From Clostridia bacterium (GTDB taxonomy: Bacteria; Bacillota; Clostridia; Oscillospirales; CAG-272): a stretch of 31,549 nt of DNA. Position numbers and translations under genes: made by a program. The notes below the pieces were generated by a model. That model did not search any database and was not told the DNA's origin. It was given only the letters and a program-made list of their open reading frames with translations. The stretch is taken from NCBI GenBank assembly GCA_017407375.1, contig JAFQWT010000095.1:1-31549 (forward strand). Direction: 5' to 3'. Shown here in pieces: positions 27,862-31,176 of this stretch (the stretch's first letter is position 1; each line of letters starts with the position of its first letter).

Positions 27862-28566
27862 TTATAATAAAAACTTTAATTTTTCAGCAACCGTTTGATA
27901 ATCGGAAATTTCTATGTGATCCATACCATAGATGCGAATATGGCTGTCTCCGCCGCCGTCGCCAAAGTCATCGCCTACGTACAGTATTTCTTCTTTCTTG
28001 TACCCATTCTCCTTGGCGTACGCCATGATCGCATCGTATTTGTTATACTTTTTTTCCGTAAAATCAAAAGAGGATGAACCGCCTATATACACCGTGTAAT
28101 CGGGAAAAAGCTCTAACACTTCGGGATATAGCACCCGGCGCTTTTCTCTTGTGGGATCAAAAGCGATCTTATCCGCAACATCGGCTTTTGTTCCCAGCAA
28201 CGGAAGGGTCACCATCCCCGTCGCGTGGAATTCCACGCTTTCGCCTTTGTAGTGCGTATATCCGTATTTTTGGCGCAAATATTCCGCTTTTTCAAGGAAA
28301 TATTCTTTATCGGGCGCTGTCGTAATTTGGCGCACGACCGTAAAGCGTCCGTCCACCATTTTGCTTTCTTCCATGCCGTAATTTGCGATGATATCTATGG
28401 GGTATTCCCCCATTTGCGTGTAAATTCTTTTTGCCGCGCCCGCACCCACCATTATCACTTTATATTTTTCTTGAAGTCTGTCCAAAAGCTCTTTTTTGTC
28501 GTCCTCCAAAGGGGAACGGTGTTGCGTGAGCGTTCCGTCCAGATCAAAACAGATCAACCGTTTCAT
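27862..28566 (-). CDS. HAD-IIB family hydrolase, eukaryote-type phosphomannomutase-like
   Basis: CFDLDGTL, IGGSSSFDF, YNKYDA, LYVGDDFGDGGGD; visibly lower GC than the genes to its left. Confidence 0.85.
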   Translation of the reverse strand: MKRLICFDLDGTLTQHRSPLEDDKKELLDRLQEKYKVIMVGAGAAKRIYTQMGEYPIDIIANYGMEESKMVDGRFTVVRQITTAPDKEYFLEKAEYLRQKYGYTHYKGESVEFHATGMVTLPLLGTKADVADKIAFDPTREKRRVLYPEVLELFPDYTVYIGGSSSFDFTEKKYNKYDAIMAYAKENGYKKEEILYVGDDFGDGGGDSHIRIYGMDHIEISDYQTVAEKLKFLL

Positions 28567-28646
28567 AGTGCACCGCCTTTCTTCGAGCTATTATACCATA
28601 ATACCGAACATTTTTCAACATAACACAAAAATGCTTTTCGCCCCTC
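28561..28646 (-). repeat. 86-bp direct repeat, copy 1 (promoter + RBS + ATGAAA of the HAD gene)
   Basis: 84/86 identical to 30930-31015. Contains TTGAAA-N17-TATAAT (with TG), the AAGGCGGTG RBS and the start codon. Confidence 0.95.
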
Positions 28647-28673
28647 TTGGCTTAGTAGGACAAAATTGCAACT
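28639..28673. repeat. 35-bp direct repeat, copy 1 (putative attR-like junction)
   Basis: CGCCCCTCTTGGCTTAGTAGGACAAAATTGCAACT is identical to 29223-29257. Confidence 0.92.
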
Positions 28674-28884
28674 CGGAATATTGAATGAAGCATCGCCTAA
28701 CGGTGATATGAAGCACTCGCTACGCTCGCATGATGCGTTTGCTTCGCAAACATGAAGCGAAGCGCACACTAACCTCTCCGTGTGCCGAAGGCACGCTTCA
28801 TAGAGCGAAGCTCTGCTTCATTTTTCATGCACCGCAAGGTGCGCTTCACCCCAAAAAGCACTTGCTTTCGCAAGTGCTTTTTTC
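28653..28884. mobile_element. ORF-less structured mini-element (TGAAGC/GCTTCA hairpin stack plus terminator) between two TGGCT cores
   Basis: Repeated TGAAGC+hairpin units followed by hairpin+GCTTCA units, then a terminator at 28853-28883; bounded by TGGCT at 28648-28652 and 28885-28889. Mobility is inferred. Confidence 0.5.
28853..28883. terminator. Bidirectional intrinsic terminator
   Basis: AAAAAGCACTTGC-tttc-GCAAGTGCTTTTTT, directly 3' (minus strand) of the tRNA-end-like sequence. Confidence 0.88.
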
Positions 28885-29176
28885 TGGCTCCCCCTGCTGG
28901 GTGAGCAAAACCAAAACGCCACGGGGCGGCGTTTTGGCGAAGCGAAGTCCTCGGCGCAGGGAGTTGAAGGAGCATCTATGATGCGACACGCAACGACCAT
29001 GCGGCAGGACAGGCCGCGTAGCGGGAACCTGCGACAGCTTGCGGAGCAAGCAGTCGGTGAACGGGCAGTGCCACGACCAAGGCAGGGGCGCTCGAATACC
29101 TAAAGGTACTTCCTCGCTCCGCTCGGTCGCCGCGTCGCCTTCGGCGCGCTGCCCCGTTCACCAGCAGGGGGAGCCA
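28885..29176. repeat. 292-bp structured segment bounded by 16-bp perfect inverted repeats resembling a tRNA-Asn 3' end
   Basis: TGGCTCCCCCTGCTGG (28885-28900) / CCAGCAGGGGGAGCCA (29161-29176), with several internal hairpins. Confidence 0.85.
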
Positions 29177-29222
29177 AGAGGGGCGCAAAAAAACAAAAGA
29201 AAAGGAGCGCACTTTGTGGGTG

Positions 29223-29257
29223 CGCCCCTCTTGGCTTAGTAGGACAAAATTGCAACT
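29223..29257. repeat. 35-bp direct repeat, copy 2 (putative attR-like junction)
   Basis: Identical to 28639-28673; marks the switch to very AT-rich sequence. Confidence 0.92.
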
Positions 29258-29328
29258 TATAGATTATTAGGATAAAAAGTGCAAGAGAATACTTTCCAAC
29301 ATTGACTTTTGAATAATGCTAATTTCAC

Positions 29329-29919
29329 TCAAAGTTCGCTTTTTGAATCATTAGAGTGCTCTTTGATCGAATCAATAAACTTTTCAATGACTGGATATCC
29401 CCCTGCCGAATAGCGGAACTGTGATAACGTGGATCCTTTTGTAGCGTCTTTCAAAAAGGAAAATTGCTCCTCTATCGTTTCTCTATCAACAATCCCCAAA
29501 TCCCATGCGATCAAAACAGTTTCAAGCGTATTCAAATATGTAATAACATGCCACCGCAATTCGGTCAAAATTTTTCCATCCACAACATTACTGTCTTTCA
29601 AGCAACATCCTGCGCATGCTTCCTTGCCCAATGAGCAAAACTTACAAATATCTTTTTTGGTTTGAGGCAAAACCTCAAAAGCCTCGTGCTTATACAAAGA
29701 TATTGCCTGATCATTATTAAGTTTTCTTGCCACCTGCTCCGCAATGCACGTATCTTTTTTTACACAATCACACCATGTAAGCATATAATTAATCGTGTTT
29801 TCTCTTCGGTGTTCCTCATGCTGTTCCTTGATTTGTTTCTTCAGCAAGAAAATTTGTGGGATAATAAGCCCGGCGGAAATGAAAAGAATTGCTACCTCAA
29901 CAATTGATACAAATACCAT
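29329..29919 (-). CDS. DUF4760-like membrane-anchored protein
   Basis: N-terminal TM segment followed by a coiled coil, then YLNTLETVLIAWDLGIVDRETIEEQF, which resembles the DUF4760 core. GGAGG RBS favours ATG 29919 over 29934; TGcTAAAAT at 29957-29965. Confidence 0.65.
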   Translation of the reverse strand: MVFVSIVEVAILFISAGLIIPQIFLLKKQIKEQHEEHRRENTINYMLTWCDCVKKDTCIAEQVARKLNNDQAISLYKHEAFEVLPQTKKDICKFCSLGKEACAGCCLKDSNVVDGKILTELRWHVITYLNTLETVLIAWDLGIVDRETIEEQFSFLKDATKGSTLSQFRYSAGGYPVIEKFIDSIKEHSNDSKSEL

Positions 29920-30114
29920 TTTAAAATCCTCCATCCATAATAGGATTATTTTTATTATTTTAGCATAAAATTATCCAAAAAACAACAATTCCCTTAAAAA
30001 CATTTTGGATTTTACCGCCATGTCAAGAGCCGGTTTCCATACACCGCACTCCGCGCGGTGATTCCATGCCACTCCTTTAGATCGGATAGCAAAAAAACAA
30101 CTTTAAAAATTGGC

Positions 30115-30582
30115 CTATTTCAACCCCAATTGTTCCCTTCTGATCTGTTCCTCTAACTCTTTTTTCTCTTTGTTTATCCTCTCTTGAATTTCTTTGCCTT
30201 TCTTACTTCTGAACAAAACTCCGCCAATAATATAGGCGAGAATATACGGCGCAAGTCCGATTAGTTTCCAATATGACGACAAAAAGAAGATCAAAGGCAG
30301 CTCAAAAGGAATGCAAAGCAAAAACGAATGCTTCAAGTATACATATTGACACGCTTGTTCTTCCTCGGTTAATCTGATCATTTTGCCCACAGGATAAGCG
30401 GTTTCACTGATATCGTTCTTTCTCGTATCTTCTTTAAAAAGCATTATCTGAAATAACATCAGAGCAATAAGAAAAATAGGAACTAAAGATAAACTATGAA
30501 CCTGTATATATAAAGGAAAAGCAACTAAAGACACCATGTTTATAGCAATATGAGCACCGTAATAAACCGTCAGCTTTTTCAT
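30115..30582 (-). CDS. Hypothetical membrane protein (about 4 TM segments)
   Basis: Hydrophobic segments and a charged C-terminal tail. Its ATG overlaps the four-helix-bundle stop (ATGA), with an AAAGGAG RBS. Confidence 0.75.
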   Translation of the reverse strand: MKKLTVYYGAHIAINMVSLVAFPLYIQVHSLSLVPIFLIALMLFQIMLFKEDTRKNDISETAYPVGKMIRLTEEEQACQYVYLKHSFLLCIPFELPLIFFLSSYWKLIGLAPYILAYIIGGVLFRSKKGKEIQERINKEKKELEEQIRREQLGLK

Positions 30583-30935
30583 TGCTTGTTCTCCTTTGCG
30601 GTATTGATGGAAGCGACAAGTATTCTCTTGATTTCCAAACAATCATTTAGCAAAGATTTCCCCATATCATCTGCTATATATTCAGACATGGCAAGTAATT
30701 TCAGCCAATATTCTGTTTCTGCGGTTTCTTTCAAGGCAATATGCATTTTAGAGATAAAATCAGCTTTGCTTTGACCGTAATTTGCTTCATTTATATTCGC
30801 ACCGATGCTTGTACCGCTACGAACAATTTGCTTTGAAATTATCGTTTCTTTCTTCGTCTTTATCAAGTATTGATGAAGCTTTATGATGCGAGAAGCAAAA
30901 GCGATCGATTTATCAATAAGCAAATTTTCTTTCAT
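30579..30935 (-). CDS. Four helix bundle protein (TIGR02436 / 23S rRNA IVS-protein-like family)
   Basis: DKSIAFASRIIKL, SKQIVRSGTSIGANINEA, DFISKMHIALKETAETEYWLKLL. Confidence 0.93.
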   Translation of the reverse strand: MKENLLIDKSIAFASRIIKLHQYLIKTKKETIISKQIVRSGTSIGANINEANYGQSKADFISKMHIALKETAETEYWLKLLAMSEYIADDMGKSLLNDCLEIKRILVASINTAKENKQ

Positions 30936-31015
30936 AATGCACCGCCTTTCTTCGAGTTATTATACCATAATACCGAACATTTTTCAACATAACACAAAAA
31001 TGCTTTTCGCCCCTC
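30930..31015 (-). repeat. 86-bp direct repeat, copy 2 (promoter + RBS + ATGAAA of the four-helix-bundle gene)
   Basis: 84/86 identical to 28561-28646; offset 2369 bp. Confidence 0.95.
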
Positions 31016-31030
31016 CGGAGAAAAGCACCA

Positions 31031-31135
31031 TAATTCTTCATTATTCATCTGCGAAGCGGCTTCATTCTTCATTATTCATTCAAAATCCGCTCTTACCTAA
31101 TGAATGATAAATGATGAATGATGAAAAATGAATAA
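31031..31135. repeat. Low-complexity TTCATT/AATGAA inverted repeat (about 7-nt periodicity)
   Basis: ATTCTTCATTATTCAT twice (31033-31048, 31065-31080) faces AATGAATGATAAATGATGAATGATGAAAAATGAATAA (31099-31135). Confidence 0.8.
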
Positions 31136-31140
31136 TACAA

Positions 31141-31176
31141 ACAAAAATCCGCCTTCTTACGAAAGCGGATTTTGTT
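31141..31176 (-). terminator. Terminator after the last gene
   Basis: ACAAAAATCCGC...GCGGATTTTGT adjoining the stop at 31176. Confidence 0.7.

Follow-up and report, generated by a model that had tools for sequence, protein, structure and literature searches.

A probable stack of small modules behind a tRNA-Asn 3' end in a Clostridia metagenome-assembled genome

We analysed a contig of 31,549 nucleotides from a metagenome-assembled genome (MAG) of Clostridia, hereafter the window. Part of it is probably a head-to-tail stack of small modules, which arrived in succession and were each inserted precisely after the CCA of a tRNA-Asn gene. Each module would open with its own terminator and close with either a copy of the tRNA-Asn 3' end (T-core) or a mimic borne by the element itself (P-core or, in relatives, Q). 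Since modules of this kind open with a terminator and close in T or P, each seam would show T or P with its ...CA end and then a terminator, and this yields the four arms seen in the region. The minus strand carries, in this order, modules M1, B and C, and then a 9-nt stump of a second B. The features are:

28570-28646, minus strand: promoter/RBS block of a HAD-hydrolase gene, a 99% copy of 30939-31015
28639-28673, minus strand: P-core-R, copy 1, with P at 28653-28673, the core at 28648-28652 and the first 9 nt of R at 28639-28647
28648-28884, minus strand: module C, 237 bp without genes, running from the E terminator through the H array of words and hairpins to the P-core end
28674-28852, minus strand: H array, in which tetraloop mini-hairpins are set between ATGAAGC / GCTTCAT words
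28853-28882, no strand assigned: E terminator, with A and T tracts and a palindrome that is perfect over 13 bp
28885-28901, minus strand: T-core, 17 nt equal to the last 17 nt of the tRNA-Asn gene of the genus; end of module B
28885-29231, minus strand: module B, 347 bp without genes, made up of the R terminator, an inverted remnant of tRNA-Asn, a GC-rich repeat and, at the end, the 17-nt T-core
28897-29031, plus strand: GC-rich repeat unit with a conserved A-tract hairpin; paralogues in genome G000 on contigs C47, C183, C182 and C57
29100-29176, plus strand: inverted remnant of tRNA-Asn; T-core forms its end at 29161-29176, and R' follows at 29177-29185
29200-29232, minus strand: R terminator, a 13-pair stem then a T run
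29223-29257, minus strand: P-core-R, copy 2, the end of module M1 abutting the R terminator of module B
29232-31176, minus strand: module M1, about 35% GC (composition, Pfam matches)

A preliminary description had reported four sites in which the core AGCCA joins a left arm (T or P) to a right arm (E or R). All four were borne out by a check of the window sequence. The two P-core-R copies (28639-28673 and 29223-29257) are an exact 35-nt direct repeat, for which we calculate a chance expectation of about 1e-13 in 31.5 kb. The T-cores at 28885-28900 and 29161-29176 make up an inverted pair that is perfect over 16 bp, its arms lying 260 nt apart, and core plus R (29172-29187 and 29221-29236) forms a second such pair; by our arithmetic, a perfect 16-bp inverted repeat is expected by chance about 1e-4 times within 1.1 kb. 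It is these long arms that carry weight, the AGCCA pentamer by itself carrying none. Both right arms are terminators that begin immediately 3' of the core. E is the 5' arm of the palindromic terminator at 28853-28882, and terminators of this type also lie behind tRNA-Gln, tRNA-Thr and others in G000.

The reading of T plus core as a tRNA-Asn 3' end held. The tRNA-Asn(GTT) genes of relatives end in ...GGTTCGAGCCCAGCAGGGGGAGCCA, the identity extends to a 17th base at 28901, and T plus core is, judging from sequence, the true 3' end of the tRNA-Asn(GTT) of the genus. ARAGORN identified no tRNA and no tmRNA in the window, and no tRNA-Asn in the source MAG, which is 77% complete. The real gene would be expected past the right end of the contig. 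In G024, the tRNA-Asn comes directly after the 3' end of the 23S rRNA (read by eye) and is followed by B and C, colinear with the window from 29236 to 28653; the homology begins at GCCA, and module B is 88% identical to the DNA immediately behind this tRNA-Asn. In G085 and G059, the tRNA-Asn is followed directly by C, and module C is 96% and 91% identical to the respective trailers. The proposal that the sites are landing pads away from the tRNA gene was thus not upheld: the same DNA stands behind a real tRNA-Asn in these three genomes, and the gene is just missing from the window.

All four arm combinations occur among the window and its relatives, in line with the earlier view that arms are shuffled around one junction. 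T is joined to E in G085, G059 and G050, and to R in G024; P is joined to R in the window and in metagenome run X7, and to E in G108 and several other genomes. The joint between module M1 (the island) and P is native to the island family, e.g., in G149. The order B, C, B recurs in G229 with unrelated sequence. The comparative data all come from MAGs.

Modules B and C encode no ORF of at least 80 aa with a family match. The inverted remnant of module B, whose body was identified as tRNA-Asn by eye, is conserved in G024. In G059, G054 and L110, its place is taken by inverted pseudogenes of tRNA-Asn that are nearly full-length, or by an inverted, convergent copy of tRNA-Asn, the latter read from the letters of its 3' part. 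B-like insertions of 168-459 bp with a T-core end were found in G014, G068, G097 and G054. On C47 of G000, paralogues of the GC-rich repeat are flanked on one side by tRNA-Met and on the other by a direct repeat of 21 nt of the tRNA-Met 3' end. An Rfam scan of the window, at gathering and at permissive thresholds, returned no family and only sub-threshold matches at chance level; a reading of the GC-rich segment as tmRNA, SRP RNA, RNase P RNA or 5S rRNA was dropped for want of Rfam support. We also rejected a MITE for the 292-bp unit at 28885-29176, which lacks a target-site duplication and, despite its 16-bp terminal repeats, has only partial paralogues in G000. Homologues of the H array of module C stand behind tRNA-Thr, tRNA-Cys, tRNA-Gln and tRNA-Asn, and the array reaches a depth of 100-450x in four gut metagenomes.

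Module M1 contains a terminator, AT-rich word repeats, a promoter block, a gene of the 23S-IVP family, a 175-aa ORF, a DUF4760-like gene and the P-core end. Its homologues lie behind tRNA-Asn, tRNA-Lys, tRNA-Gly or a P-core in G014, G087, G149 and others. The promoter block belongs to a 77-nt repeat (28570-28646 and 30939-31015, 99% identical), of which the second copy precedes the IVP gene and the first supplies the promoter of the HAD gene (TTGAAA-17-TATAAT). At P-core-R copy 1, the 9 nt of R are fused to this HAD promoter block, and the fusion point falls in the shared GAGGGGCG of the terminator loop at 31007-31015. The stump of the second B would have been fused later, through an 8-nt microhomology, to the copy of the promoter block that precedes the HAD gene.

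Empty and filled sites differ exactly at the CCA end, by modules of 168, 181, 248, 272, 459, 770, 894, 1465, 1552 and 11047 bp. Each insertion has its first base directly behind CCA and its last bases in ...CA, and no sequence is duplicated. The junction is the base after ...CA, and AGCCA as such, which had been proposed as the common core, is not the shared element. A small gene-less unit of about 240 bp (E, hairpin array, P) had been predicted, and the architecture of module C is indeed a discrete insertion: G158 has 248 bp between tRNA-Asn and a flank that in L116 follows tRNA-Asn directly. Gene-less modules of 181 and 248 bp occur in both orders when L116 and G158 are compared. Modules of the B class are accompanied by tRNA-Asn repeats of 17 to 48 nt (G068, G097, G054, G112); we found no direct repeat of a displaced tRNA fragment with modules ending in P-core or Q. 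A crossover at the final CA or close to it is inferred, as are the direction in which the insertions arrived and their order.

P plus core is a 26-nt motif, AGTTGCAWTTTTGTMCTAY+GAGC(N)CA, which is not unique to the window. Searches with the exact 20-nt P arm in public collections gave two chance matches in metagenome contigs and none in genome contigs; the arm was too strict to find relatives, which were retrieved with a degenerate P pattern. With the degenerate P-core, the expectation that P occurs with other flanks was borne out in many genomes. The motif is present in 38 of the 213 genomes of the genus, at 52 places, compared with 14 when the pattern is reversed. Genomes of other species have it in a further 83 stretches, all of them from MAGs of uncultured Clostridia, mostly with animal-gut names. 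Both its edges are sharp and a terminator is always next. The Q motif of relatives, GGTTCGAAATTGTTGGG..CA, is more tRNA-like. Left-flank families are each paired with many right arms. Of the 234 places homologous to these right arms, 126 are preceded by P-core, 25 by tRNA-Asn, 17 by other tRNAs, 11 by Q and 24 by other ...CA ends. The likeness of P-core to the tRNA-Asn end is weak (shuffle p 0.01-0.18), and homology between the two is weakly supported by sequence comparison.

Several known types of site were compared with P and rejected. BLAST of the P site against plasmids and phages gave nothing useful. The left ends do not begin with TG and P does not occur in inverted pairs, unlike the TG..CA ends of Tn7- or Mu-type elements. 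IS200/IS605 or IS91 types were set aside because the P end has no hairpin and no linked transposase was seen, and a Xer/dif-like site because P-core has no dyad symmetry. A RAT- or ops-type antitermination signal was discarded because P stands clear of terminator stems and flush with upstream stop codons.

A large serine recombinase acting in trans would most likely be the mover, since the P or Q end is shared by autonomous relatives that encode one to three enzymes of this type. These genes lie 0.1-1 kb before a P- or Q-type end in G007, G066, G195, G229, L099 and L164. In G007, the order is tRNA-Asn, serine recombinase, ORF and P-core, and the same sequence follows both the tRNA and the P-core. 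Triplets of recombinase genes stand 144 nt (G066) and about 350 nt (G229) before P-core and 105 nt before Q (G195), and the gene is about 1 kb before P in L099 and L164. A recombinase is nearby in only about six of more than 130 P sites examined, and G000 has only a serine recombinase fragment, on C195, away from the window. The linked recombinase that had been anticipated is thus found in relatives, of the serine type, and not in the window. There, the tandem stacking of units with no recombinase in cis was as first described: none is encoded, and the nine window ORFs scanned include no tyrosine integrase. The P-array contigs of five genomes also carry neither a recombinase nor a tyrosine integrase. 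Linkage of P sites to tyrosine integrases was not found (such a gene occurs in 2 of the roughly 170 context loci with a P site, one chance locus aside). A serine integrase normally reads both half-sites, so the sequence differences among the right arms speak against our explanation. The same right arms stand behind several different tRNAs, and a broad or structural target rule would thus be needed.

An account without dedicated recombination is unlikely, if still the most serious rival. The P-core would be a conserved functional 3' element, e.g., the end of a small tRNA-like RNA or a pre-terminator signal, and the terminators and hairpin arrays would be ordinary tRNA trailers. The pattern would come from duplication in place, from template switching where terminators are palindromic, from joins at microhomologies and from homologous exchange between conserved tRNA and P blocks. 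One left-flank family agrees with this, its P having its own TTGACA-17-TATAAT promoter and a hairpin of about 15 bp with a compensatory change, as do L111 and L140, where P-core stands directly before tRNA-Lys, the usual position of tRNA-Asn. G000 has a convergent pair of identical tRNA-Ala genes and a terminator-centred palindrome that includes a tRNA-Cys end, the joint of copy 1 is an 8-nt microhomology, and patterns in which one sequence flanks another on both sides are compatible with Campbell-type homologous integration. Yet, at least ten insertions of unrelated content start at the very base after CCA and finish in ...CA, and two modules are found in both orders. T-core and P-core are too dissimilar for homologous exchange, yet have the same right arms, and serine recombinase genes adjoin P and Q ends far above chance.

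The scheme of the preliminary description, taken exactly, is improbable. It has a 237-bp circle with P-core-E as attP entering orphan T-core-R pads, and the plus-strand T-core-R as an empty inverted attB. The joints of T with R and of P with E in relatives agree with it, as does the discrete insertion of the unit of about 240 bp. Yet T-core-E plus the array is the common trailer of a real tRNA-Asn, and the supposed attB is the end of the inverted remnant inside module B, conserved together with B in G024 and typical of the class. We also compared the region with the contigs of four metagenome runs, including X1, X2 and X7. In these we saw no 237-bp circle and no strain-matched P-core-E joint, nor any other circle or excision product. 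The sole back-join, in contigs of X7, a run that also shows the joint of P with the R terminator, leads from 29222 to 28639; it corresponds to the 584-bp period of B and C and fits a tandem copy or a circle. A joint in X2 from 28887 to 29240 (21-nt sides) is a seam of P-core with E that carries a different core, and hence comes from another locus or organism. X1 and X2 leave 28985-29119 without cover, from which we conclude nothing.

There is an equally slim chance that the assembly is at fault, i.e., that a mis-join over the 35-nt or 77-nt repeat brought together M1, B, C and the HAD gene, which would not be contiguous in one cell. The source MAG comprises 230 contigs, Logan contigs from X1 and X2 stop at repeat edges, and none of the four runs singly covers the joint 29222/29223 with the island on its far side, or has island, P-core and full R terminator together. 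Against this, contigs of X1 and X2 span the joint from P-core-R copy 1 to the HAD promoter block at 100%, every single joint is present in at least one independent run or relative, and the same grammar recurs in more than 80 assemblies of different groups.

Beyond the stack itself, we tentatively consider a wider system, which we hold to be possible rather than probable. Serine recombinases, often in triplets, might insert circular units right after the CCA of many tRNA genes, in an integron-like system of gut Oscillospirales that reads the shape of a tRNA end, or a promoter-driven pseudo-tRNA end (P or Q), and not a fixed two-sided att site. Gene-less cassettes of about 180-350 bp, with nothing but a terminator, a hairpin array like Gut-1 and the end motif, might then be truly mobile, which would give the orphan Gut-1 motif a role. 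We found no paper describing such cassettes. If true, tRNA gene ends would be docking points for cassettes moved by recombinases in trans in many uncultured gut Clostridia. This would account for much of the strain-level gene variation in these genomes, where the cargo seen comprises glycoside hydrolases, sugar-use operons, regulators and four-helix-bundle (IVP/Avd-family) genes, and would provide a genomic context for Gut-1, whose function is unknown. Serine recombinases that cut right after CCA with one conserved half-site would be of practical interest as genome-insertion tools. In annotation, orphan tRNA-end fragments and 26-nt P motifs should be regarded as probable mobile seams.

Integron cassette arrays and CALINs are defined by IntI, by attC hairpins with R and L boxes and by attI. 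The modules resemble them as swappable units in one direction that share a short end motif and would be inserted at the head of the row. Unlike integrons, they have no IntI, attC hairpin or attI: no tyrosine recombinase was found at array heads, P-core lacks a dyad, the anchor is a tRNA end, and the units bring a terminator and often a promoter.

In the islands at tRNA genes found by Islander (PMC4383910) and in tycheposons (bioRxiv 10.1101/2020.12.28.424599), the tRNA gene is split and restored. Newcomers there also insert at the tRNA gene and shift older elements outward, and partial tRNA copies mark old seams, as T-core ends module B. Here, the tRNA gene is left whole, most seams have no tRNA-fragment repeat, and the tyrosine integrase that Islander places within the element was not found among the nine window ORFs or on the P-array contigs of five genomes. 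The H array resembles the Gut-1 RNA motif (RF01706; Weinberg et al. 2010, PMC2864571) in its short word, its UUCG-type mini-hairpins and its restriction to gut metagenomes, from which alone Gut-1 is known. The match, on the minus strand at 28780-28819, has a score of 21.2 bits (E 0.24), below the gathering threshold of 50 bits, and the array differs from Gut-1 in being longer and mirror-symmetric.

CIMEs, which take part in site-specific accretion with ICEs and IMEs, arise by decay of ICEs that have tyrosine integrases and are kb-sized (PMC5704250). Like them, modules B and C keep att-type ends, have no integration or transfer genes, lie in tandem at a tRNA end and presumably use the enzyme of a relative; their seams behave as insertion boundaries in relatives. 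Unlike CIMEs, the units can be shorter than 250 bp, have a designed layout (terminator, hairpin array, end motif) and are linked to a serine recombinase. Elements with large serine recombinases (Tn4451, SCC, ssrA-GI) carry the gene beside an element end; here, it lies 0.1-1 kb before the P or Q end in some relatives and is absent in the window. Such elements cross over at 2 bp, leave no long target duplication and are excised as a circle with attP; the insertions in relatives show no duplication, and the X7 back-join may be either a tandem copy or a circle. In Dehalococcoides, tandem genomic islands at ssrA are moved by the CcrB-like serine recombinase DsiB (PMC3146451). As here, a row of islands stands behind a tRNA-like gene, the seams are 3'-end copies plus an adjacent element-borne motif, a large serine recombinase lies at one end of an element, and the enzyme is missing from decayed members. 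The Dehalococcoides seams all carry 20 bp of the gene end as a repeat, and the islands insert within the T-loop (PMC3146451), whereas here the seams mostly carry a 26-nt mimic, insertion is after CCA without duplication, many members are gene-less units of 170-460 bp, and several tRNAs are used.

All four sites with the core AGCCA in the preliminary description were confirmed in the window, where the core is joined to the arms T, R, P or E; the interpretation given there is supported in part. We consider it fairly probable that the window holds a stack of cassettes, whose units are read along the minus strand.

Features around the AGCCA sites and order of the units
28639-28673 and 29223-29257: P-core-R, exact 35-nt direct repeat
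28885-28900 and 29161-29176: T-core, perfect 16-bp inverted pair
29172-29187 and 29221-29236: core plus R, second perfect 16-bp inverted pair
28853-28882: E terminator, perfect 13-bp palindrome whose first arm is E
29232-29200, minus: R terminator, 13-pair stem plus T run, whose first arm is R
31547-31176, minus: end of an ORF, first in the order
31176-29232, minus: module M1 (terminator, AT-rich words, promoter block, IVP-family gene, 175-aa ORF, DUF4760-like gene, P-core)
29231-28885, minus: module B, after M1
28884-28648, minus: module C, after B
First 9 nt of R, minus: R stump, after module C

The 35-nt and 16-bp repeat lengths far exceed chance, which the pentamer AGCCA by itself does not. 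The window is the entire contig C35 of a MAG (G000; 230 contigs, 1.53 Mb, 61% GC, 77% completeness), and its GC content drops to 35-45% right of 27800. It contains no tRNA and no Rfam family; the 22 tRNA genes of this 77%-complete MAG include no tRNA-Asn. Past the R stump, the sequence crosses within the shared GAGGGGCG into a copy of the promoter block of the IVP-family gene, followed by a HAD-hydrolase gene. This 77-nt promoter/RBS block, 99% identical at 28570-28646 and 30939-31015, precedes two unrelated genes (HAD hydrolase and 23S-IVP-family protein). One copy retains the complete terminator hairpin (31000-31030); the copy at 28639 retains the 3' half alone, fused to core-R via GAGGGGCG. 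The HAD-hydrolase gene (27862-28566, minus) has 40-49% GC, against 61% in the genome, and could itself have been brought in as cargo of the stack. The IVP-family gene (PF05635, four-helix bundle; 30579-30935, minus) is recurrently the leading gene behind a tRNA terminator and hairpin array (L004, L021, L044), and G000 has a second PF05635 copy on contig C149. In four gut metagenomes, the depth of Logan contigs was 100-450x at 28715-28984 and 31010-31144, against 5-10x on the flanks, which indicates that numerous organisms or copies in these communities share the AT-rich word repeats, the E terminator and the hairpin array.

With one mismatch allowed, the 15-mer CAGCAGGGGGAGCCA matched in 31 of 101 genomes of the genus. 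Wherever ARAGORN was run, it was the 3' end of a tRNA-Asn(GTT), ending in ...GCTGGTTCGAGCCCAGCAGGGGGAGCCA. T with the core had been parsed correctly as T-stem strand, acceptor strand, discriminator G and CCA. In the window, identity to tRNA-Asn extends to 17 nt (28885-28901). In the closest relative for the stretch with the four sites (G024), the sequence opens with what we take to be the 3' end of the 23S rRNA, read from the letters by eye rather than with Rfam, and then a tRNA-Asn. Homology to the minus strand of the window starts at GCCA, directly followed by the R terminator, an inverted copy of core and T, 260 GC-rich nucleotides, the hairpin array (ATGAAGC-type words interleaved with mini-hairpins) and the first bases of P. 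Since a true tRNA-Asn in G085 and G059 runs directly into the E terminator, then the hairpin array and P (96% and 91% identity to 28662-28900), T-core-E with the array is the common native trailer of tRNA-Asn. Module B (the GC-rich unit with the R terminator) is an additional piece, placed between tRNA and trailer in G024. Left of core-R in the window, P and low-GC DNA occupy the place of the tRNA body, and we infer that the real tRNA-Asn gene lies beyond the contig end.

The inverted T-core-R site had been interpreted as an empty attB. This does not hold: the site is kept, together with the R part, in G024, and the same place is occupied in G059 and G054 by a near full-length inverted tRNA-Asn pseudogene and in L110 presumably by a convergent inverted tRNA-Asn copy (judged from the letters of its 3' part rather than by ARAGORN). 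It is therefore an internal feature of the class of module B. The motif TGGCT also stands behind many of the terminators that follow P-core. Template switching at a palindromic terminator is one option for the origin of these direct/inverted/direct copies of the tRNA end. Elsewhere in G000, two identical tRNA-Ala(CGC) genes converge on a single shared terminator (C133:13620-13804), and a tRNA-Cys has a terminator palindrome that continues into an inverted copy of the gene's own 3' end, with GC-rich repeat units behind it (C183:17330-17700). At C47:258-880, a tRNA-Met with its terminator precedes two GC-rich repeat units (about 520 bp together), after which come a direct copy of the tRNA-Met 3' end (21 nt) and another terminator. 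Here a gene-less insertion like module B sits at a different tRNA.

The exact 20-nt P arm gave only chance matches in public collections. A degenerate pattern had 52 matches in the genus, spread over 38 of 213 genomes (the reversed control had 14), and it also matched 83 stretches of other species' genomes, all of them MAGs of uncultured Clostridia, Oscillospiraceae, Faecousia, Flemingiibacterium or CAG-448, with names mostly from ruminant or other animal guts. The conserved block has 26 nt, AGTTGCAWTTTTGTMCTAY then GAGC(N)CA (TAAGCCA in the window), and is sharp at both edges. On its left, either one of various unrelated low-GC genes reaches its stop codon or a word-plus-hairpin array has its final unit; on its right a terminator is directly attached, with a sequence that differs between places. 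Several contigs have 2-4 copies of P in the same orientation, kilobases apart, with sugar-use operons, glycoside hydrolases and regulators between them. The joint between the low-GC island of the window and P recurs in G149 and is thus native to that island family. The likeness of P to the tRNA-Asn end is weak.

The 120 nt on the right flank of each P site served to find homologues elsewhere (234 places). The sequence in front of these homologues was P-core in 126 cases, a tRNA-Asn end in 25, a different tRNA end (Lys, Gly, Thr and others) in 17, the second and more tRNA-like end motif Q (GGTTCGAAATTGTTGGG..CA) in 11, other sequences ending in CA in 24, and something else in 31. All four arm combinations named in the preliminary description (T/E, T/R, P/R and P/E) exist. 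An automated search for pairs of loci sharing left and right flanks returned clean empty/filled pairs at the base after CCA, with inserts of 168, 181, 248, 272, 459, 770, 894, 1465, 1552 and 11047 bp. Every such insert has a terminator at its start and P-core, Q, T-core or another ...CA at its end. The strongest case for insertion is a tRNA-Asn followed in L116 by a 181-bp unit and an E-array unit, and in G158 by a 248-bp E-array-P unit and then the 181-bp unit, since simple divergence cannot give two gene-less units in both orders. The order B-C-B' in the window has a 584-bp period. A contig of run X7, from a different study, joins 29222 back to 28639 with the same period, as a tandem copy or a circle would. 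This X-Y-X layout occurs with unrelated sequence in G229 (C-B-C), and also around the recombinase element of G007; it would fit homology-driven integration of a two-module circle.

The window lacks a recombinase, as previously noted, and recombinase genes of the tyrosine or serine type are also absent from the P-array contigs of five genomes. When all context loci were searched with profiles, L128/G229, L099 and L164 proved to have large serine recombinase genes shortly before P and on its strand. The best homologues of one of them in the genus adjoin seams, i.e., junctions of CA and terminator:

Recombinase genes near seams
G007: tRNA-Lys, tRNA-Asn, x, 593-aa recombinase, ORF, P-core, x
G066: recombinase triplet ending 144 nt before P-core, two further P-ended modules behind
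G195: recombinase triplet whose end lies 105 nt before Q
G047: pair of recombinase genes at 2.3 kb from a convergent tRNA-Asn

Roughly 0.05 such co-locations would be expected by chance. The P variant beside recombinase genes (AGTTGTAATTTTGTCCTRTAACCACA) is the closest to that of the window. The autonomous elements with serine recombinases have a strong promoter some 50 nt ahead of P or Q, which reads TTGACA-17-TATAAT in L099, L164, L226:7220-7385 and L229:5280-5410. A short transcript from it would form a hairpin of about 15 bp or a mini tRNA-like acceptor end, then the terminator; one stem position of the predicted hairpin shows a compensatory change. G000 itself retains a large serine recombinase only as a C-terminal fragment of 340 aa (C195:1-1230), which stops about 100 nt short of the terminator of a convergent tRNA-Leu(CAG).

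Serine integrases normally read both half-sites, and the variable right arms go against this norm. Several different tRNAs act as anchors, no excision product was seen, the relatives compared are MAGs throughout, and in no single run does one contig span the island, P and the complete R terminator. For these reasons, and given the weak likeness of P, three rivals to the cassette stack are kept. The first is a non-recombinase origin of the pattern. The second is the preliminary scheme exactly as written, of which the identity of T and the arm shuffling stand and the inverted empty attB does not. The third is mis-assembly.

The described systems nearest to the cassette stack are the islands with a serine recombinase that pile up behind ssrA in Dehalococcoides (PMC3146451), CIMEs and accretion (PMC5704250), canonical tRNA-gene islands (PMC4383910) and tycheposons (bioRxiv 10.1101/2020.12.28.424599). 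Unlike in these four, insertion here appears to be behind CCA and to leave the tRNA gene unsplit, most ends bear a 26-nt mimic in place of a tRNA-fragment repeat, a fixed design is common to the gene-less units (about 180-350 bp), and the tRNA used is not always the same one. The hairpin array resembles Gut-1 (PMC2864571), of which it is not a member by Rfam score.
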